From positions 20,364-84,363 of the forward strand of contig JALVAT010000013.1 of NCBI GenBank assembly GCA_027011045.1: a stretch of 64,000 nt of DNA, read 5' to 3'. Source of the stretch: Candidatus Micrarchaeota archaeon (GTDB lineage: Archaea; Iainarchaeota; Iainarchaeia; JAADDC01). Position numbers and translations under genes: made by a program. Below the pieces are notes generated by a model. It searched no databases. It worked only from the letters and a program-made list of their open reading frames with translations, and was not told the DNA's origin. This document shows positions 2,951 through 59,849 of this stretch, one piece after another (the first letter of the stretch is position 1; each line of letters starts with the position of its first letter).

Positions 2951-3673
2951 GTGTATGCTGTGTTCGAAAACCTGTTTGGAGGCGGCGGAAAGCAGCAGAA
3001 TAAAAGCCCAAAGAAGCCAGCTGCTGGAATAAAGCCTGCTATTCAGATCGGCGTTGGAGCTCCGACAGTTGGTAGTCCCGCTACAAACGCCGGCGGTCAG
3101 GATCTCGCCGCAGAGCTCGAGAACGTCAAGCAGGACGTTGAGAAGCTCAAGGACTCCGTCAACGCGATTAGGTCCTCACTTAAGAACCTGAACGAAAAAA
3201 TGGACAAACTCGAAAAGCACATTGCAGAGCTCGCATCCATCTACGAGCTTGTTACAAACCAGACAAACCCATTCCTTGACGAAGACGAGAGAAAAGCCGC
3301 TGCAAAAAAGGTTGGGACCATTCAGACAGTCCCAGCGGCAGCGCCAGCTGCCCCCGTAGCACCAAAGGAAGAGGAGCCTGAGGTCGTGCTGCCCAGCGTG
3401 GATCTCACGAATCCAAAGGTAATTCAGACGATCCTTGACTGGATGCAGTTCATCGTGGAACGTGTGGGCCACGCCGGCGTCGATGACGTGCTCCAGTACT
3501 ACGTGGACATCCACTGGATCTCCCAGGAAGTAGCGGAGATCCTCAAGCGCTACGCAGACGGAATAAGGGTTGAAATTGAGCCAGAGGTGGAGGAACCCGT
3601 GCAGCTCGATCCCGAGGACCACATGAAGAGCCTGGACTACATTATGCAGATCAAGGAGTTCCAGGGTCAGTGA
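2951..3673 (+). CDS. FlaD/E-domain archaellum accessory protein (FlaC/D/E family); the true start may be the GTG about 9 nt downstream of a GGAGG
   Basis: Soluble coiled-coil N-terminus plus C-terminal block ...LQYYVDIHWISQEVAEIL... resembling the FlaD/E domain signature (YY..IGWIS.EV). Confidence 0.6.
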   Translation: MYAVFENLFGGGGKQQNKSPKKPAAGIKPAIQIGVGAPTVGSPATNAGGQDLAAELENVKQDVEKLKDSVNAIRSSLKNLNEKMDKLEKHIAELASIYELVTNQTNPFLDEDERKAAAKKVGTIQTVPAAAPAAPVAPKEEEPEVVLPSVDLTNPKVIQTILDWMQFIVERVGHAGVDDVLQYYVDIHWISQEVAEILKRYADGIRVEIEPEVEEPVQLDPEDHMKSLDYIMQIKEFQGQ

Positions 3674-5105: not shown

Positions 5106-5506
5106 TGTTTTCCACAGGCAACAGGTTTATAGCGTATTCTTAGCAAAATAATTCTGCGGCCTGGCTGCGCCCGGGGAGCGCGAAGCAATGAACCGGTGTC
5201 ACGAAGGCCGCATACAACCCAAACAATAGAAAGATTCACAAGAGAAGACTGTAACAAGATAATAACCGGCTGCAAGTCCGTCTGGCAGACAATAGGAATA
5301 ATGTTAAAAGAGGGTGCCGTGCAATCAGCGCCTTGCTCTTCTTCTCCTGCGCTTAAGGCGGCGCATCTTCTTCTTTCTCCACTTCCAGCGCTGCATTGCG
5401 TGGGGCTTCTTGAAACGCGATGTGTCCTTCTTTCGTATGCCCAAGTGAGCACCTCCTGAGGTGTGAACGCTATGCTAAGGGTCAAAGGAGTTAATAAAGG
5501 TGTGGG

Positions 5507-5530
5507 TATGCTCCGGCCAGCATTTGAAGG
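5507..5530 (-). repeat. Degenerate duplicate of the tRNA-Glu 3' end (T-loop plus acceptor 3' strand)
   Basis: tatgctccggcc (12/12) and atttgaa (7/7) match the 3' part of the tRNA-Glu gene about 100 bp away. Confidence 0.5.
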
Positions 5531-5629
5531 CCAAATTCTCTGGCCGGGCGAGTGTGGGTGGGGTCTACCGACCCCACGCCCGGGCGCGGCGACAGAGACG
5601 ATATCACCGCGCCAGCAACGCAGCTGTTA

Positions 5630-5704
5630 TGCTCCGGCCGGGATTTGAACCCGGGTCTCGGGCTCGAAAGGCCCGAATGCTTGACCGGGCTACACCACCG
5701 GAGC
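5630..5704 (-). tRNA. tRNA-Glu(TTC): tRNA-Glu (anticodon TTC)
   Basis: Manual fold: acceptor GCUCCGG/CCGGAGC, T-arm CCGGG-UUCAAAU-CCCGG, anticodon stem CGGGC/GCCCG, loop CUUUCGA. Confidence 0.85.
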
Positions 5705-5830
5705 AGCCACCATCCCGGCTGGCGTGATGCTAACTGCCCGTCTTCGACAGGCAATTATGCGTTGGTTGCACGCGGGGTCAAGCACCGCCTGCGGGTGCGA
5801 AACCCGCACCCAACATCCGCCGTAGAATGC
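5705..5830 (-). repeat. tRNA-flanking structured element, copy C (shortest family member)
   Basis: Shares ccatcccgg, gatgctaactg, a hairpin, caattatgc and ggttgc blocks with the elements at 33776 and 46118; lies directly 5' of tRNA-Glu. Confidence 0.55.
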
Positions 5831-5856: not shown

Positions 5857-5916
5857 GGATCAGCACTGCTATCTCTCATCATCGCTCCGCTCAGACGAAA
5901 CCTCCCTCATCACCCA
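5857..5916 (-). ncRNA. C/D-box sRNA (2'-O-methylation guide)
   Basis: Minus strand reads GUGAUGA, 12-nt guide, CUGA, spacer, GAUGAUGA, 12-nt guide, CUGA; A/T-rich TATA-like stretch about 25 nt upstream. Confidence 0.7.
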
Positions 5917-5943
5917 TAAAAAGAGATATCTCACGTTTTTATT

Positions 5944-7690: not shown

Positions 7691-8515
7691 ATGGCAACGG
7701 CGGTCGAGCATTCGGGAGAGAAGATTATCATCGATCCAAGTGCAGCACTTGGGCCAAGAAGATACGGGCTGCCGCCCCACGAGCTGGAGGAGCTCGCACT
7801 CCGGCTCGCGCTAAAGAGGATTGACCGGGAACTTCAGGACGCCGATTACGTTATCTTCACGCACTACCACTGGGACCACTACAGGCCGGAGGCAGACCTG
7901 GAGGGAAAGGTTGTATACATGAAGGATCCGGAGAACTACATCAATGCGAGCCAGAGAAAGCGGGCAGCGCCGATAACAAAGCGGGAAGGCCTTGACCTGC
8001 GCATTGCAGATGGGCTGAAGGTAGATGAATTGGATATGGAGTTTTCACCACCCCTGCCGCACGGACCGGAAGGAACAAGGCTTGGATACGTCATCGGGGT
8101 AAGAATAGGGGATCTAGTCTTTACATCGGATGTGGAGGGGCCGGTAAGCGAGGCTGCGACACGGTGGATCATCGAAATGAACCCAAGAACGCTGATACTG
8201 GACGGCCCCCTTACGTACATGCTCGGATACAGATTTTCGCAGGAATCGCTGCAGCGCGCCGTGGAAAACCTCCTGGGGATCGCGGAGAGCACAAACGTGA
8301 CGGAAATTATAGCGGAGCACCATTTAGTCCGGGATATCAACGCCCACAAGAACTTCCCCGTGGGTGAAAGACTCGCTGAAATCGGAGTGGAGTATAGGAA
8401 CGCCGCGGAAGCCCAAGAGCTGGAACCGCTCCTTCTGGAACCTTGGCGCCGTATGCTGTGGAAGGGTGAAAAAGAGGTTGACCCAGATATAGTAAGGAGG
8501 GTGTACGATGCGTGA
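7691..8515 (+). CDS. Metallo-beta-lactamase-fold hydrolase
   Basis: VIFTHYHWDHY (HxHxDH motif) about 60 aa from a KIIIDPSAA strand; stop overlaps the reverse gyrase start (ATGCGTGA). Confidence 0.6.
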   Translation: MATAVEHSGEKIIIDPSAALGPRRYGLPPHELEELALRLALKRIDRELQDADYVIFTHYHWDHYRPEADLEGKVVYMKDPENYINASQRKRAAPITKREGLDLRIADGLKVDELDMEFSPPLPHGPEGTRLGYVIGVRIGDLVFTSDVEGPVSEAATRWIIEMNPRTLILDGPLTYMLGYRFSQESLQRAVENLLGIAESTNVTEIIAEHHLVRDINAHKNFPVGERLAEIGVEYRNAAEAQELEPLLLEPWRRMLWKGEKEVDPDIVRRVYDA

Positions 8516-11500
8516 AAGGGCGCTCTTCACAAAGCTCTGTCCAAACTGCGAGGGGGAAATAAACGATATCCGCCTCTCGCTCAAGAACCCGTGCAGCACC
8601 TGTTTGGAAACAGCGGTCGTAGAGAACACATACGAACAGCTTGTAGAGGCGATTTACCGGGCATTAAAGGAGGGGGACAAGCTAAGGAAGTACCAGATGA
8701 TCCACGACGTAATCCATCACCTCACAGAATTCAACGAATTTTTCGAAAGGGCCGTGGGATCCAGGCTATGGAGCGCGCAGAGGACGTGGGCCAAGCGTGT
8801 GTTCTTGGGGAGGTCCTTCTCCATCGTGGCGCCAACGGGCATTGGAAAGACGGCCTTCGGATCCGTTATGGGGATATACCTAGCGAAGCACGGCGAAAAG
8901 GCCTATTTCATCCAGCCCACGACTACGTTACTCATGCAGACAGCGGAAAGGCTGCGGGACTATGCAAAGAGGGCGGGAGTTGACGTCAGGATCGTGGAGA
9001 TCCACGGCAAGATGAAGAAGGGCGAGAAGGAAGAAGCACAGCGGGCCATTGAAGCAGGGGAATTTGATATCCTCGTAACGACCTCGCAGTACCTCACGCG
9101 AAACTTCGACACCCTCGCAAGGCACAGGTTCGACTTCATCTTTGTCGACGACGTTGACGCATTCCTCCGTGCGTCCAAAAACATAGATCGCGTGCTCCAA
9201 CTCCTGGGATTCACGGAGGAGATAATATCGGCTGCATACGAGCTGATACGCGCAAAGTTCACCCTCCTCTTCCGGAGCAACGACCAGCAGCTAAGAAAAC
9301 GCATCGAAGAGCTGCAGGAGAAGATAGATCGGTTCAAGGAAAACAACAGGGTAGGTCAGCTCATCGTTGCATCCGCCACGGGGCGAGCAAGGGGCATCCG
9401 TGTCAAGCTCTTCCGGGAGCTCCTGGACTTTGAGATCGGGAGCACAAGGGCAAACCTGAGGAACATCATCAACGCGTACACGGAGGAAAGGAACTGGAAG
9501 GAGCAGGTGCTGTCAGCGGTGACGGCGCTGGGCAAGGGCGGGCTCGTGTTCGTCCCGACGGATAGGGGCAGGGAGTTCGCGGAGCAGGTTGCACAGTATC
9601 TGCAGAGTTCTGGAGTAAAAGCAATGCTCGCAACGTCCGAAAACGCAGATCAGGTCCTTAAAGCGCTGGAAGCTGGAGACGTGGACGTAGCGGTAGGTGT
9701 TGCCGCGTACTACGGCGTGCTGGTGCGCGGAATTGACCTGCCCGAGCAGATAAGGTATACCATCTTCGTGGGGGTCCCAAAGTTCAAGTTCTCACTACGC
9801 TTCGACAACGCACCGCCCGGAAGGCTGGCGTATCTCCTGGACGTGGTGGCGGACTACGACGAGGACATTGCGAGGGAGGCGAGATCCCTTGCAAACAGGA
9901 TTAGGAGGAACCCGCGCGACGAAGATGTAGAACGGGCAAAGGAAATCCTGCGGAGGGCCTTTGAGAACAGGGAACTGGTGGAACGCATAAAGCAGAGCAA
10001 GGAAATCGCTGTGGTCGAGGAAAATGGCGAACTAAAGATCCTCATAGCAGACGTACGCACATACATCCAGGCAACGGGAAGAACATCGCGCATGTACGCC
10101 GGGGGAATTACGCCGGGGTTCTCTTTAGTCCTCGTGGACGACGAACGCGTCTTCGATCAGCTTAGAAGGTACATGCGCATAGTACTCGATGAGGAGTTTA
10201 AACCGCTGGAGGAAATAGATCTCGCCGAAATACGGCGCTGGCTAGAGGAGGGCAGAAGAAAGAGGGAAAAGCTGGCGGAAGATCCCGTTAAAACAGTTCT
10301 ATTCATCGTTGAATCGCCAAACAAGGCGAGAACAATTGCACACTTCTTCGGAACACCTTCATCATACCGCATAGGCAACATCCGGGGCTACGAGGTGGCC
10401 ACGGGCAAGTACATCCTTAACATCGTGGCTACCAGGGGGCACATGTTCGACCTAGTCACGGACCGCGGATTCCACGGGGTGCTCGTGGAGGAGGACGCGC
10501 ACTGGTTCGTACCGGTATACACGACGATCAAGCTCTGCCGCCGCTGCGGCGTACAGACGGTGGAGGATAAATGCCCAGTTTGTGGATCGGATGAGTATCT
10601 GGACGACGCAATATGGCGTGTTAACGCTCTGCGCCTCTTTGCCCTTGAAAGCGACTTCGTGATCATTGGAACGGACCCCGATCGAGAGGGAGAGAAAATA
10701 GCCTGGGATACAGCCCTCGCAATAAGCCCCTACGTCCCCACCATTGTCAGGGCGGAGTTCCACGAGGTAACGCGAAGTGCCATTCTGCGGGCCCTGGAGG
10801 AAACGAGAAACATCGACGAAAACATAGTAAACGCCCAGATCGTCCGCAGGGTGGAGGACCGCTGGATTGGATTCGAGCTGTCGCGGAAACTCTGGGAAGC
10901 ATTCGGCATAAAGATCCTGTCTGCGGGGAGAGTACAGACGCCGGTACTTGGATGGATCATAAGGCGCTATGAGGAGCACAAGGACAGCGTACGCATATTC
11001 CTCGACGTGAAAACAGAAACTGGTAGAGTTGTGTTCGAAACGCCGTTCAAGAGTGTCAAGGAGCTTCGATCAGCGGAAATACCAAGCACGTTAGAGGTGC
11101 GCGTGGAAAAAAGGGAGGAAACGGAGCTCGGGGCGCCGGCACCATTCACAACGGACACGATGCTCAGGGAGGCAGGAGAACGGATGGGCATAGGTGCAAA
11201 GGATATCATGCAGCTCGCGCAGGACCTATTCGAAGCGGGTCTCATCACATACCACAGGACCGACTCTACGCACGTGTCCGCCGCAGGGCGCGCCCTCGCA
11301 AGGGAGTACATATCGGAACGCTTCGGAGAGGAGTACTACAGGGGCCGCAGCTGGGGTGAAGAGGGTGCCCACGAATGTATTCGCCCCACAAAGCCCTTGG
11401 ATACGGACACGCTGATCCGCATGGTGCGCGAGGGCGAAATTAACGTTCAGGGGCTCCGAAAGAAGCACCACCGTCTATACTCCATCATATTCGAACGCTT

Positions 11501-12017
11501 TATGGCTTCCCAGATGCGGAATCCCACGGTAGAGAGGGCAGAAGTCGTCTACAGGCTGGGGGAGTTTGAAAAGAGGGAAACAGCAATAACAAGAATCGTG
11601 AAGGACGGGTGGAACCTCGTGAGGCCCGTGCGCACGCGAGAAGTACGGGAAGGGGCCTTCAGGGTCGTGGAGATTCGGAACTTTAAGGCGGCAACGGTCC
11701 CGCTATACACACAGGCAGACGTAGTGGCCCTAATGAAGGAGCGAGGAATAGGAAGACCCAGCACATACGCAACAATCATACAGAAGCTCCTGGATAGGAA
11801 GTACGTGCGCGAATCCCAGCAGAAGAAGCGGCTGTACCCAACCCAGCTTGGAATACGCGTATACAACTTCCTTTCCGAGAACTACGAAGATCTCGTATCG
11901 GAGGAGCGGACGAGGATTCTCGAGGAGACCCTTGACGCCATTGCCGCAGGGGAAAGGGATTATCAGGACGCGCTGCGCGAGATGTACCTCGAAATAAGGG
12001 GGGCCGTAGGTGAGTAG
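8508..12017 (+). CDS. rgy: Reverse gyrase (single-chain helicase-like plus topoisomerase IA fusion)
   Basis: 1169 aa; N-terminal Zn finger (CPNCEGE...CSTC), Walker A APTGIGKT, DEAD-like DDVD, Toprim and topo IA C-terminal half. Confidence 0.9.
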   Translation: MRERALFTKLCPNCEGEINDIRLSLKNPCSTCLETAVVENTYEQLVEAIYRALKEGDKLRKYQMIHDVIHHLTEFNEFFERAVGSRLWSAQRTWAKRVFLGRSFSIVAPTGIGKTAFGSVMGIYLAKHGEKAYFIQPTTTLLMQTAERLRDYAKRAGVDVRIVEIHGKMKKGEKEEAQRAIEAGEFDILVTTSQYLTRNFDTLARHRFDFIFVDDVDAFLRASKNIDRVLQLLGFTEEIISAAYELIRAKFTLLFRSNDQQLRKRIEELQEKIDRFKENNRVGQLIVASATGRARGIRVKLFRELLDFEIGSTRANLRNIINAYTEERNWKEQVLSAVTALGKGGLVFVPTDRGREFAEQVAQYLQSSGVKAMLATSENADQVLKALEAGDVDVAVGVAAYYGVLVRGIDLPEQIRYTIFVGVPKFKFSLRFDNAPPGRLAYLLDVVADYDEDIAREARSLANRIRRNPRDEDVERAKEILRRAFENRELVERIKQSKEIAVVEENGELKILIADVRTYIQATGRTSRMYAGGITPGFSLVLVDDERVFDQLRRYMRIVLDEEFKPLEEIDLAEIRRWLEEGRRKREKLAEDPVKTVLFIVESPNKARTIAHFFGTPSSYRIGNIRGYEVATGKYILNIVATRGHMFDLVTDRGFHGVLVEEDAHWFVPVYTTIKLCRRCGVQTVEDKCPVCGSDEYLDDAIWRVNALRLFALESDFVIIGTDPDREGEKIAWDTALAISPYVPTIVRAEFHEVTRSAILRALEETRNIDENIVNAQIVRRVEDRWIGFELSRKLWEAFGIKILSAGRVQTPVLGWIIRRYEEHKDSVRIFLDVKTETGRVVFETPFKSVKELRSAEIPSTLEVRVEKREETELGAPAPFTTDTMLREAGERMGIGAKDIMQLAQDLFEAGLITYHRTDSTHVSAAGRALAREYISERFGEEYYRGRSWGEEGAHECIRPTKPLDTDTLIRMVREGEINVQGLRKKHHRLYSIIFERFMASQMRNPTVERAEVVYRLGEFEKRETAITRIVKDGWNLVRPVRTREVREGAFRVVEIRNFKAATVPLYTQADVVALMKERGIGRPSTYATIIQKLLDRKYVRESQQKKRLYPTQLGIRVYNFLSENYEDLVSEERTRILEETLDAIAAGERDYQDALREMYLEIRGAVGE

Positions 12018-17705: not shown

Positions 17706-17814
17706 CCGGGGGTAGCTCAACCTGGTAGAGCGGCCGGCTGTAGTCTGGCTTGGGCCCAACCTGCAACAACAGGCAGAAACCGGCAGGTTGGGGGTTCAAA
17801 TCCCTCCCCCCGGA
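17706..17814 (+). tRNA. tRNA-Tyr(GTA): tRNA-Tyr (anticodon GTA) with 35-nt intron at the canonical 37/38 position (17744..17778)
   Basis: Acceptor CCGGGGG/CCCCCGG, anticodon stem GCCGG/CCGGC interrupted by a 35-nt insert after CUGUAG. Confidence 0.8.
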
Positions 17815-28657: not shown

Positions 28658-29557
28658 TTATTGGCGTGGGGGCTTTTTTATTTCCACCGTCAGGCCGTCG
28701 TAGGCGGCGGTCACGCTGGGAAAAACGGCGGACGCTTCCGCAACAACCTGAGCGAGGTCGTCGATACGCGGTGAAAAGTGGGTGAGCACCAGCTGGCGAA
28801 CTTCAAGTCTGGATGCAAGCTCTGCAGCCTCTTTAGCCGTGGAATGTAGACGTTCAAGGGCCATCTCGCGGTCCGCATCGAGATACGTGGCCTCATGGAT
28901 CAGAAGATCGGCCCCACGTGCAAGCTCGTTGTAAACAGGGCGCGTGTCGGTGGCGTAAACGAGTTTCCTCCCGGGCGTCGTGTATACCACGTCCTCCGGA
29001 CGGATAACGCGGTCGCCCAAGCGCACTGTTTCCCCCCGCTTTAATCGGGCAACGAGAGGTCCTTCTATCCCAAGCGCTCGGACCACGGAGCGCCGTGCAC
29101 GCACAATGGGCTTCTCCCGCAGGACGTAGGCAAGAGTGGGAACTCCGTGCTTCAGCTCGTAGGCGAGGACCTCAAAATCCCCTAGATCAAGGAGTAAACC
29201 GGGCTCGGCAGGGTGAAATTCCAGGGGATAGTCCACGCCCAGGGGTATGGCGTTCAAATAGTCGCGCAGAGCATCCAAGGATCGCGCTGGAACCCACAAA
29301 TGAAGGGGACGCCGCCTACCGTAGAGAGACATCGTGCTCAGAAGGCCGGGAAGACCAAAAACATGATCTCCGTGGATGTGAGAAATGAAAATGTGCTCCA
29401 CACGCATAAAAGAGCGTCCAAAAACCATAAACTGGCGTTGAACACCCTCTCCAGCATCGAAGAGAAGAGAACGACCCTTGAACTCTACAAGGACCCCTGG
29501 CAGCCCGCGCTCCTTTGTTGGAACCGACGCGCTGGTGCCCAGAAACGTCACCCTCAT
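28658..29557 (-). CDS. rnz: Ribonuclease Z (tRNA 3'-processing endonuclease, MBL fold)
   Basis: MRVTFLGTSASVP start, HIHGDHVFG motif, ~300 aa. Confidence 0.75.
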   Translation of the reverse strand: MRVTFLGTSASVPTKERGLPGVLVEFKGRSLLFDAGEGVQRQFMVFGRSFMRVEHIFISHIHGDHVFGLPGLLSTMSLYGRRRPLHLWVPARSLDALRDYLNAIPLGVDYPLEFHPAEPGLLLDLGDFEVLAYELKHGVPTLAYVLREKPIVRARRSVVRALGIEGPLVARLKRGETVRLGDRVIRPEDVVYTTPGRKLVYATDTRPVYNELARGADLLIHEATYLDADREMALERLHSTAKEAAELASRLEVRQLVLTHFSPRIDDLAQVVAEASAVFPSVTAAYDGLTVEIKKPPRQ

Positions 29558-30513
29558 TTCTGACACACGAAAACCCTCCTGGTAAGGCTGGAGTGCACGT
29601 ACCACTTGAAGGACCGAATCAGCTTAAATCCAGCCGCGGAGAGGGGCCCGGATATATCCTTGTCGCAGACCACAACGGCTCGCCGCCCCCGCTTCAAAAC
29701 ACGGTACATCTCGCGGAAGGAAGAGAGATAGAGCTCACGCAATCTGCCAACGACCTTGGACGAGCGACCGTAGGGAAGATCCGTGACTATTGCATCCACA
29801 GAGCTGTCCTCAAGGGGTAAATCCCGCGCATCGCCATGGAGGACATCTGCAAACAGCCCATAATGCTCAAGATTCTCGCGGGCTCCCGAAACCATTTCCT
29901 CTACGGCATCAACGCCAATTGCATGGGCACCCACCGCAGCAGCCTCCAGAAGTATGCCTCCGGCGCCGGCGAAGGGATCCAGGAGCACCTCGCCGGGCAA
30001 AACTCCCGAGACGTTGACCAAAAGGCGTGCTTCCCTCGCATTCATGGAGGTGGGGTGGTGAAACGGCCTGTTCTTCACGTCTCTTGGGAAGAAGCGCGTA
30101 GGGCTGAGCTCATGGGCAGGTGCAAGAACGTGGTATCTTCCCGAAGCGGGAACGATGTAGACAACGGTTCTTGGATTGCGAAGGTCCACGGATCCGTCGA
30201 GATACCAGCCAACACGACGGTTAAAGCCTGGCCCAAGGGGAGAACGAACGGCAAAGGGGGCATTCTGAACCACGTATCGCCTCAGCCCGCTAATCGTGGC
30301 AAGCGTGCCAAAATCCATCAACCGAGTAAAGGAAAACCAGCGCCTACCCACAATCTGTGTGTACGAGAGCCTTTGCCAAGGGTATTGGGAACACCTGCAG
30401 AGAACGAGTCGATCCGCTACGACACGGCACGGACAGCCCATACGCTGCGCCAGTGCAAGCACCTCTTCCCGGGCAAGCCCCGTAAGACGACCGGAAACCC
30501 TAAAGGCAAGCAC
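29554..30513 (-). CDS. THUMP-domain tRNA (guanine-N2) methyltransferase, Trm11/Trm-G10 family
   Basis: SAM motif I DPFAGAGGILLEAA and motif IV DLPYG; N-terminal THUMP-like region; GTG start chosen to avoid the spurious antisense extension over lon. Confidence 0.6.
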   Translation of the reverse strand: MLAFRVSGRLTGLAREEVLALAQRMGCPCRVVADRLVLCRCSQYPWQRLSYTQIVGRRWFSFTRLMDFGTLATISGLRRYVVQNAPFAVRSPLGPGFNRRVGWYLDGSVDLRNPRTVVYIVPASGRYHVLAPAHELSPTRFFPRDVKNRPFHHPTSMNAREARLLVNVSGVLPGEVLLDPFAGAGGILLEAAAVGAHAIGVDAVEEMVSGARENLEHYGLFADVLHGDARDLPLEDSSVDAIVTDLPYGRSSKVVGRLRELYLSSFREMYRVLKRGRRAVVVCDKDISGPLSAAGFKLIRSFKWYVHSSLTRRVFVCQK

Positions 30514-33700: not shown

Positions 33701-33775
33701 GTGGGGCCGCCCGGATTTGAACCGGGGACCTTCGCCGCGTGAAGGCGACGTCATGCCAGGCTAGACCACGGCCCC
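33701..33775 (-). tRNA. tRNA-Val(CAC): tRNA-Val (anticodon CAC)
   Basis: Acceptor GGGGCCG/CGGCCCC, anticodon stem UCGCC/GGCGA, loop UUCACGC. Confidence 0.85.
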
Positions 33776-33905
33776 AACCGCCATCCCGGTTGACATCGCA
33801 AGCTCCGCTTGCGTGCACGCGAACGGAGTTCGCGATGCGTGAGTGTGCATGGGGCTTGCAGCCCCATACTCAGCCGGTTGTGTGGTCGGTTGCTTGCAAC
33901 CGGCC
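33776..33905 (-). repeat. tRNA-flanking structured element, copy A (first 69 nt identical to copy B)
   Basis: ccaaccgccatcccggttgacatcgcaagctccgcttgcgtgcacgcgaacggagttcgcgatgcgtga is identical at 46118; contains a ~17-bp near-perfect hairpin centred on the palindrome gcgtgcacgc. Confidence 0.6.
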
Positions 33906-33998
33906 TCGCACAGCGCCGGCCAATGTGGCGGCCGCTCTACAGACCAGAGTGATTTATGGGGAGAGGAATTAAAAAACTACGAGTCTGGAAAGAACGTG

Positions 33999-38285: not shown

Positions 38286-38346
38286 AGGTCAGCTACCCCA
38301 GGGAGCATCATCGCCGCGCTCAGGGGTGCTGTCTCTCATCATCCCG
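38286..38346 (-). ncRNA. C/D-box sRNA (tandem with the previous one)
   Basis: Minus strand: GGAUGAUGA, 12-nt guide, CUGA, gcgcgg, CGAUGAUG, 12-nt guide, CUGA; cttttatg TATA-like about 22 nt upstream. Confidence 0.7.
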
Positions 38347-38375
38347 CTTCTAAGAAGGCAGAGGTGCATAAAAGC

Positions 38376-46085: not shown

Positions 46086-46097
46086 AACGTGTGGAAA

Positions 46098-46112
46098 AAG
46101 CCGCGGGCGGGA
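46098..46112 (-). repeat. Duplicate of the last 15 nt of tRNA-Thr (acceptor 3' strand plus T-stem), followed on the minus strand by TTTTT
   Basis: agccgcgggcgggat is identical to 46322..46336 of the intact tRNA-Thr gene 208 bp away. Confidence 0.55.
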
Positions 46113-46117
46113 TCCAA

Positions 46118-46262
46118 ACCAACCGCCATCCCGGTTGACATCGCAAGCTCCGCTTGCGTGCACGCGAACGGAGTTCGCGATGCGTGACGCTAACTGGGGA
46201 TCTGCGATCCCCAATTATGCACCGGACGTGTAGTCGGTTGCTTGCAAAAGGTGTGCGCGGTG
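46118..46262 (-). repeat. tRNA-flanking structured element, copy B
   Basis: First 69 nt identical to copy A; distal part shares gctaactg, a hairpin, caattatgc and ggttgc with copy C. Confidence 0.6.
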
Positions 46263-46322
46263 GCCAGAAACTGCGATAGTAAAGCTCGGCAGCAGTAAGA
46301 ACAGGCCATAATTAAGAAGAAG

Positions 46323-46396
46323 AGCCGCGGGCGGGATTTGAACCCGCGACCTGCCGCTTACAAGGCGGCCGCTCTACCGGACTGAGCTACCGCGGC
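46323..46396 (-). tRNA. tRNA-Thr(TGT): tRNA-Thr (anticodon TGT)
   Basis: Acceptor GCCGCGG/CCGCGGC, anticodon stem GCCGC/GCGGC, loop CUUGUAA. Confidence 0.85.
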
Positions 46397-56173: not shown

Positions 56174-56252
56174 TCAGCCAAGGCTGAAGTCATCATCGGT
56201 CAGACGCGCCTTACTTCATCACACCTCAGCATTGGACTCATTCATCATCCCG
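56174..56252 (-). ncRNA. C/D-box sRNA with an abutting extra C-guide-D half-unit (56174..56197)
   Basis: Minus strand: GGAUGAUGA, 12 nt, CUGA, ggu, GUGAUGA, 12 nt, CUGA, cc, GAUGAUGA, 12 nt, CUGA; AAATTTATTT TATA box about 22 nt upstream. Confidence 0.65.
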
Positions 56253-56576: not shown

Positions 56577-59620
<3,044 letters not shown>

Positions 59621-59849
59621 GGCGTTTGCCGTCTGCCTTTCTCCGAATTTTCGCCATCAGAAATAGCCTAGTTCTAGCCGATAGGTTCCCTGTGCGTGGC
59701 TGCACATTTATACATAACAATGTGAAAAATAGTCTGACCATTTTGAAATAGAAATTAAAAATGGTCGCCAGCAGAAACGCAGTATCACAGAAAAACGTGT
59801 GGTACAAAAAACATCACAAAATAAAATCCAGGAAAAACTGAATATACAC

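Follow-up and report, generated by a model that had tools for sequence, protein, structure and literature searches.

A hairpin-rich non-coding repeat between a tRNA-Thr gene and a displaced copy of its 3' end in an uncultured hyperthermophilic archaeon

The tRNA-Thr locus and its repeat element

The window, the whole stretch of 64,000 nucleotides that was analysed, is part of a 126-kb metagenomic contig and carries an archaeal 23S rRNA gene, six tRNAs, reverse gyrase, and archaellum genes. The reverse gyrase gene (8508-12017, plus strand) points to a hyperthermophile. The 23S rRNA gene (56607-59598, plus strand) is accompanied by an inverted repeat that would form its processing stem (56582-56604 and 59678-59700) and has tRNA-Ser(TGA) upstream; the window contains no 16S gene, and the 16S and 23S genes therefore appear to be unlinked. 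An intron-containing tRNA at 17706-17814 (plus strand) scored 56 bits with the Rfam tRNA model and was missed by ARAGORN. Other features of the window include a metallo-beta-lactamase protein with an RNase Z-type domain (28658-29605, minus strand), a LonB whose closest solved structure is 3k1j, and three sequences that resemble C/D-box sRNAs (5858-5917 on the minus strand, 38289-38355, and 56225-56252), with boxes in the order GUGAUGA...CUGA...UGAUGA...CUGA. The first of these, which immediately precedes the tRNA-Glu promoter, is conserved in the related loci L033, L034, and L032; its best Rfam match is sR2, at 28 bits, which is under the gathering score.

The tRNA-Thr(TGT) gene lies beside CDC48 and is followed by a repeat element, termed copy B, and then by a displaced stub of the gene's own 3' end (Table 1). 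A reading of this DNA made earlier from its letters (the sequence-only reading) had noticed a 15-nt duplicate of the end of tRNA-Thr. The duplicate is real, but the coordinate given for it, 46098, was one base off: the exact 15-mer AGCCGCGGGCGGGAT occupies 46099-46113 and 46323-46337 on the plus strand. Whether it might be a dispersed repeat, a possibility raised at the same time, was checked throughout the window, where these are the only two sites even when up to two mismatches are allowed, and the pattern GGTTNNNATCCCGCCCGCGGCT has two matches in the window against 0.00 expected from 100 shuffles. The degenerate similarity described beyond the 15-mer extends the match, since GGTTtggATCCCGCCCGCGGCT and GGTTcaaATCCCGCCCGCGGCT agree on the tRNA strand at 19 of 22 positions and span tRNA positions 52-73. 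The T-run said to follow the distal copy on the tRNA strand was also seen, as TTTTT, and is likely an archaeal terminator.

The junction that leads from a conserved 410-aa gene across the stub and into the first part of the element is also present in Logan contig L002 (SRR8439022), which comes from a separate assembly, though not necessarily from reads separate from those of the window's ENA assembly, and which stops 30 nt into the 69-nt repeat shared with copy A. Both flanks of the insert, with CDC48 and the 410-aa gene as neighbours, are syntenic with a related genome (L003), and the tRNA-Thr/copy B arrangement is therefore not a chimeric join. Five related genomes have the same tRNA-Thr gene beside CDC48, identical as far as each contig reaches; the CDC48-bearing contig of the REYS20-1 relative (L031) breaks at 3358, the contig end, inside the T arm of tRNA-Thr. 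In the same relative, positions 1671-2158 of contig L004 hold the orthologue of the 410-aa gene, then AT-rich DNA with a different ORF and no stub, and a larger foreign insertion may be present at its tRNA-Thr. The protein-cluster members of CDC48 were set aside, most of them being unrelated 52-aa proteins.

Table 1. Features at the tRNA-Thr, tRNA-Val, and tRNA-Glu loci of the window, and structures of the same layout on related contigs
Feature	Coordinates	Strand	Remarks
Intact tRNA-Thr(TGT)	46323..46396	-	ARAGORN; Rfam tRNA, 74.8 bits
Proximal repeat copy: last 15 nt or last 22 nt of tRNA-Thr	46323..46337 or 46323..46344	-	Sequence match
Copy B, inserted repeat element	46121..46322	-	22-nt repeats 202 nt apart; exact 15-mers 209 nt apart
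Module P2 of copy B, hairpin (TAACTGGGGATC / GATCCCCAATTA)	46191..46217	-	Compensatory changes among family members
Module P3 of copy B, 44-nt near-perfect palindrome	46139..46182	-	In long copies, missing from short ones
Terminal hairpin of copy B, CAACCGGGATGGCGGTT, end abutting the stub	46121..46137	-	Conserved in eight copies
Stretch of 69 nt 100% identical to copy A (33774-33842)	46119..46187	-	Sequence comparison
Displaced stub of the tRNA-Thr 3' end, tRNA positions 52-73	46099..46120	-	Exact over 46099-46113; 3 T-loop mismatches
TTTTT run on the tRNA strand	46095..46099	-	First T is the last base of the stub; sequence
Copy A, abutting position 1 of tRNA-Val(CAC) (33702-33775)	33776..33990	-	5' limit approximate
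Divergent family member between promoter and tRNA-Glu	5706..5826	-	Absent from L033 and L034; 5' limit approximate
Insert between tRNA-Glu (5630-5704) and its stub, 99-nt hairpin element ending GGCCAGAGAATTTGGCC	5529..5627	-	Missing in sister genome
Second stub of the window: 3' end of tRNA-Glu with 2 nt of trailer, TTCAAATGCTGGCCGGAGCATA	5507..5528	-	20/22 identical to 5628-5649
L022, tRNA-Ser(CGA)			64-nt short-form element; 35/35 repeat from G52, including 12 nt of trailer
L034, tRNA-Glu			94-nt element; 37/37 repeat from A58, including 21 nt of trailer
L003, tRNA-Thr, 3' side			Different element; degenerate stub TTCAGATTCCGCCCGCG-CT
L003, tRNA-Thr, 5' side			117-nt element; exact 14-nt repeat of the tRNA 5' end, GGTGCCGCGGTAGC
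L028/L029, tRNA-Thr			5' stub GGTGCCGTGGTAGC

The 202-nt insert formed by copy B holds no ORF of note and has a fold stability above that of shuffled sequences (z = -3.3). A TATA-like TTAATTAT is found behind tRNA-Thr and a T5 run after the stub, and the stub is predicted, from a reading by eye, to be able to pair with the CGGGAT motif of the element in a 6-bp hairpin. Over 108 nt, copy B shares 97% identity with the element before tRNA-Arg(TCG) on JGI contig L022, which belongs to another metagenome. A pattern search with the terminal hairpin found three contigs, all from one JGI metagenome, and elements ending CAACCGGGATGGCGGTT stand on JGI contigs directly before tRNA-Pro, tRNA-Val, two tRNA-Arg, and one intron-containing tRNA. 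Eight copies, from two sources, share this end with few or no differences; six of them lead into an intact tRNA and two into a stub starting GGTT. Copy B belongs to a lineage-specific, mosaic, hairpin-rich family that occupies tRNA gene ends in uncultured hyperthermophilic archaea.

The family comprises a long form and a short form, the latter without the 44-nt palindrome (CATCGCGAACTCCG...CGGAGCTTGCGATG, at 46139-46182 in copy B and at 33794-33837 in copy A), which looks in the sequence like an optional module inserted within the repeat family. The terminal hairpin is invariant in the element alignment, with five paired positions retained in eight of eight sequences, and the P3 palindrome is likewise invariant; neither covaries, and the other hairpins show a few compensatory changes. 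Family members also occur before tRNAs and between the tRNAs of operons, with no direct repeat. Their CCGGGAT motif is generally complementary to the AUCCCGG of T arms, and the element before tRNA-Glu has a 3' end (CCAGCCGGGAT, 5712-5722) that is complementary at 10 of 11 positions to the 3' strand of that tRNA's T-stem/acceptor (ATCCCGGCCGG, 5634-5644).

Searches of reference collections with the element returned no relatives. The covariance models of Rfam 15 placed the element in no family, only tRNA and a C/D-box candidate appearing at the gathering and E-value thresholds, and the best match to the stub/element end, PyrR210, scored 15.2 bits where the gathering score is 59. The element was inspected by eye for hammerhead, H/ACA, C/D-box, and bulge-helix-bulge motifs, and none was seen. 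A genome collection scanned with CAACCGCCATNNCGGTTGRCA yielded 16 bacterial chance matches, the lineage being outside that collection's species representatives; viral contigs gave two chance matches in coding DNA for the terminal hairpin and 0 for the type-2 junction, and blastn with the elements against plasmid and phage records gave no match. No donor locus was found for the 5' half of copy B. A 14-nt match to the D arm/anticodon stem of tRNA-Thr upstream of copy A (E = 0.048) was considered as a tRNA 5' fragment and dropped, the segment aligning with the element's own 5' module in L021.

The same layout at other tRNA genes

An intact tRNA flanked by an element and then by a stub of that tRNA's own end is a layout found in seven events at five tRNA loci, among about two dozen tRNA genes examined, so that the connection drawn in the sequence-only reading between the structured-element family and tRNA-gene rearrangement is borne out and considerably extended. 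The direct repeats measure 12, 14, 15, about 17-20, 22, 35, and 37 nt in the different events, and the inserts, which range from 64 to 209 bp, consist wholly of the repeat family. Five of the stubs are tRNA 3' ends from the T loop, all starting within tRNA positions 52-58; the remaining two are tRNA 5' ends that bracket inverted elements, and both stop at +11. In the stub-bearing events, the conserved hairpin end of the element adjoins the displaced stub, and the opposite end adjoins the intact gene. Decay of the stubs differs by site, affecting the T loop beside copy B, the T stem at tRNA-Glu, and the acceptor, through an indel, in L003.

The tRNA-Glu gene of the window carries an element upstream and a second element with a stub downstream, whereas neither is present in the sister genome (L003/L033), which shares 75-79% nucleotide identity with the window over 18 kb. 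In L033, the promoter leads into tRNA-Glu, then CTAACCCCCACATTTATTAAC, then the putative L41e gene, with no insert on either side. The DNA behind the Glu stub in the window has its homologue behind the tRNA in L033, which identifies the stub and its native flank as the original end of the gene. Right after this stub lies a highly basic 39-aa ORF (MGIRKKDTSRFKKPHAMQRWKWRKKKMRRLKRRRRRARR, 5325-5444, minus strand), conserved in L033 and L034, which was taken by eye for ribosomal protein L41e.

Comparison of the tRNA-Thr locus among related genomes, a step that the sequence-only reading had proposed, added further empty sites. In L030, tRNA-Thr has a plain promoter and no insert on either side; in L028, its downstream side is empty, as is its upstream side in the window and in L031. 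Because orthologous sites are thus found both empty and occupied, the tRNA/element/stub structures come or go on the time scale of species divergence. Empty sites could also arise by exact deletion between direct repeats, which leaves gain and loss partly separated.

The elements occur in both orientations. In L028, the element before tRNA-Thr corresponds, as reverse complement, to the element behind tRNA-Glu in L034, from the same metagenome, with about 92% identity over 51 nt and an alignment score of 75 in this orientation versus 25 in the same sense. The upstream element of L003 matches the reverse complement of the type-1 end as well. A same-sense reading of this element, which drew on the resemblance of the leader's 5' strand to the reverse complement of the 3' strand, was rejected, because alignment in the two orientations and the L028/L034 case favour inversion. 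With both orientations represented, a purely strand-specific RNA role, as leader only, cannot explain the family, which behaves like DNA that is copied into the ends of tRNA genes. At the junctions, L022 shows what in our own reading is microhomology (left, ATCCCTG versus ATCCGG; right, GG), mismatched filler adjoins the junction in copy B and in L034, and a search for terminal inverted repeats at the insert ends found none.

Origin of the displaced tRNA ends

The arrangement behind tRNA-Thr was probably produced by duplicative insertion of a non-autonomous, non-coding repeat with duplication of its target, whatever the molecular route. In such an insertion, the distal 15-22 nt would represent the original 3' end of tRNA-Thr, still joined to its T-run terminator, and a hairpin-rich repeat of about 200 bp would have been copied in just behind tRNA-Thr, displacing this old end. 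A fresh copy of the last 15-22 nt of the tRNA would have arrived with the repeat, which would keep the working gene intact. Upstream copies, whose end coincides exactly with the start of the tRNA (position 1), would enter transcripts as 5' leaders or as spacers in operons; copies downstream run up to a stub with its start in the T loop, and some upstream copies lie inverted, bracketed by the duplicated 5' end of the tRNA. We infer that the stub is a passive scar, because the stubs have decayed to different degrees and are absent from close relatives. The att-like geometry that the sequence-only reading recognised, a regenerated tRNA and a displaced 3' fragment around an insert, was right, and the empty orthologous sites fit insertion. 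On the best reading, the footprint is of the integration type in its geometry, and its agent is a small non-coding repeat family, not an integrase-bearing element.

Genes for mobility were sought in the window and around it. Integrase, transposase, reverse transcriptase, and Cas1 are all lacking among the 30 window ORFs scanned with Pfam, a set that holds housekeeping genes only and leaves about 30 shorter or overlapping window ORFs outside it, and the precomputed Pfam lists of the fetched related loci (roughly 150 kb, a fraction of any genome) likewise show housekeeping genes and no mobility gene. It is possible that a recombinase or reverse transcriptase is encoded elsewhere in the genome. 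The earlier suggestion of a remnant left by a decayed or excised integrated element found no support, since no recombinase occurs in the scanned ORFs and loci, synteny is unbroken on both sides, and the insert is repeat family throughout.

The same search bears on a true att scar, in which the repeats would be attL and attR, the integrase would be encoded elsewhere or lost, and the insert would be a miniature element or a larger one deleted to its arm. The tRNA-end direct repeat, with one copy in the intact tRNA and the other displaced, is what this explanation calls for, as are constant stub boundaries and relatives with both empty and occupied sites. The places of the repeats within the tRNA, either the T loop/3' end with variable 5' limits or the 5' half, are those of archaeal integrases (PMC8371274), a regenerated gene with a displaced fragment is the standard footprint of an island (Islander; PMC4383910), and a 5' fragment of tRNA-Thr flanks a 1.8-kb recombinase element in Caldiarchaeum (PMC3293823). 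However, no integrase was found in the scanned window ORFs or the roughly 150 kb of related loci, and no recombinase gene or fragment lies within or beside the bracketed segment. An element together with one repeat copy amounts to 99-231 bp, a very small circular substrate for recombination; the inserts are mosaic and differ from event to event; and the repeat of L034 includes 21 nt of locus-specific trailer, which attP would need to carry. The T-loop segment beside copy B also differs from the tRNA, and family members stand before tRNAs and between operon tRNAs without any repeat. An att scar is consequently judged unlikely.

The stub and copy B might instead be maintained for their transcript, copy B being a functional small RNA, an independently transcribed paralogue of a pre-tRNA leader, with the tRNA-like tail acting as a signal for processing, stability, or termination or as a decoy. 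The probability of such a role is low, though kept from zero by the TATA-like box, the T5 run, and the possible hairpin between the stub and the CGGGAT motif, a pairing of our own reading that leaves room for a possible RNA-level role against the view of the stub as a scar only. The stability of the fold relative to shuffles and the compensatory changes in some hairpins are also in keeping with an RNA function, but P3 and the terminal hairpin are invariant, with no covariation, the same element is also found inverted, the unit is missing in close relatives, and the stubs have decayed at different places in copy B, tRNA-Glu, and L003.

It is very unlikely that copy B and the stub are a truncated tandem unit, the other origin offered in the sequence-only reading, in which an ancestral second copy of leader and tRNA-Thr would have lost tRNA positions 1-51 by a deletion like that envisaged for tyrT. 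The element does end exactly where a tRNA would start and is then followed by the stub. Yet in the window, L030, and L031 a plain promoter precedes tRNA-Thr and a leader of this kind is missing, and copy B is closest to the elements of other tRNAs, namely those of tRNA-Arg and tRNA-Val. One deletion endpoint would be needed repeatedly, up to five times; L022 and L034 lack this element upstream of the supposedly duplicated tRNA; perfect 35-37-nt repeats flank elements very unlike the neighbouring leader; and the L034 repeat holds 21 nt of trailer specific to its locus. A transposon with a fixed target-site duplication, derived from a casposon or another miniature inverted-repeat element, is less probable again. 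Casposons duplicate 14-15 nt of their target and insert at tRNA 3' ends, and two of the repeats, of 14 and 15 nt, have this size, but repeat lengths are spread over 12-37 nt, the insert ends are without terminal inverted repeats, and neither Cas1 nor a transposase was found among the 30 Pfam-scanned window ORFs. Split tRNAs exist in some archaea, and an isolated 3' piece after a structured leader that may have its own promoter would suit a gene trans-spliced to a 5' piece elsewhere, but this idea is scarcely credible for a decayed piece of only 22 nt from the T arm, with a complete tRNA-Thr(TGT) gene 202 nt away and no complementary 5' partner in the window or fetched loci.

Duplicative insertion could have proceeded in several ways. 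The most plausible, with some reserve, is that a fork stalled or the DNA broke in the tRNA gene and that template switching guided by microhomology, or illegitimate recombination, then brought in sequence from another copy beside a tRNA; this route fits the repeat lengths of 12-37 nt, the locus-specific trailer, the mosaic inserts in both orientations, the microhomology in L022, and the filler in copy B and L034. Against illegitimate joining stands the regularity of the stub limits, with 3' stubs from 52-58 and 5' stubs to +11, which is what a site-specific enzyme gives and which microhomology explains loosely. This regularity fits a tentative second possibility, in which a site-specific recombinase would act in trans on a miniature element. 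An RNA-mediated, target-primed route would also leave the 3' end intact and let the 5' extent and the duplications vary, but with no reverse transcriptase seen it is regarded as improbable.

A bolder and still speculative reading takes the elements for an undescribed miniature non-coding mobile DNA that homes to tRNA gene ends in either orientation and duplicates 12-37 bp, so that the gene survives. Landings upstream would become the 5' leader of a pre-tRNA or an operon spacer, and the enzyme, either a recombinase that cuts the T loop or D arm or a target-primed reverse transcriptase, would be encoded elsewhere.

Significance and comparison with known systems

Displaced fragments of tRNA ends are usually taken as marks of integrated viruses or plasmids. 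Since the same footprint has been made repeatedly by non-coding hairpin repeats of 64-209 bp, with no mobility gene seen, automated island finders would misread such loci. If these repeats really do move, they would constitute an archaeal miniature element that targets tRNA genes. Long structured leaders of pre-tRNAs and stray tRNA fragments would then stem naturally from them, as possibly would the disruption of tRNA genes. If template switching gives rise to them, they would record tRNA genes as hot spots of replication or repair in a hyperthermophile.

Bacterial REP/BIME and miniature inverted-repeat elements are small non-coding hairpin mosaics that lie between genes and are co-transcribed with their neighbours. 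The copy B family is likewise small, non-coding, hairpin-forming, mosaic, and intergenic; unlike REP/BIME, no RAYT or IS200-type gene was seen with it, and it is confined strictly to tRNA gene ends, with target duplications of 12-37 nt. The tyrT locus of E. coli, for which Egan and Landy reportedly described in 1978 repeats of 178 bp that each end in the last 19 nt of tRNA-Tyr, resembles the present one in that part of a tRNA 3' end recurs about 180-220 bp behind the gene. There, tandem copies of the gene's own flank are involved, whereas the repeat behind tRNA-Thr is dispersed and common to other tRNA loci.

Two archaeal cases come nearer. At tRNA-Thr(GGU) of Caldiarchaeum subterraneum, a 5' tRNA fragment lies 1.8 kb upstream of the gene and flanks a recombinase-encoding insertion (Sugahara et al., 2012; PMC3293823). 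That locus shares with the present one an uncultured archaeal population, heterogeneity at tRNA-Thr, and a stray tRNA fragment that marks an insertion; in place of a 1.8-kb insertion with a recombinase, the inserts here are about ten times smaller and non-coding. The attL/attR sites of archaeal tyrosine recombinases (of the SSV type, the pTN3/pT26-2 type, and SNJ2) also consist of a regenerated tRNA and a displaced end around an insert (PMC8371274; PMC4383910). [quoted passage not shown] The repeats of the present family lie in the same T loop/3' end or 5' part, the core lengths of 14-40 nt are comparable, and relatives again vary in presence. The present inserts differ from those archaeal systems in having no integrase and no cargo and in their size of 64-209 bp, and in belonging to a mosaic host repeat family whose members also stand directly before intact tRNAs and lie in both orientations.
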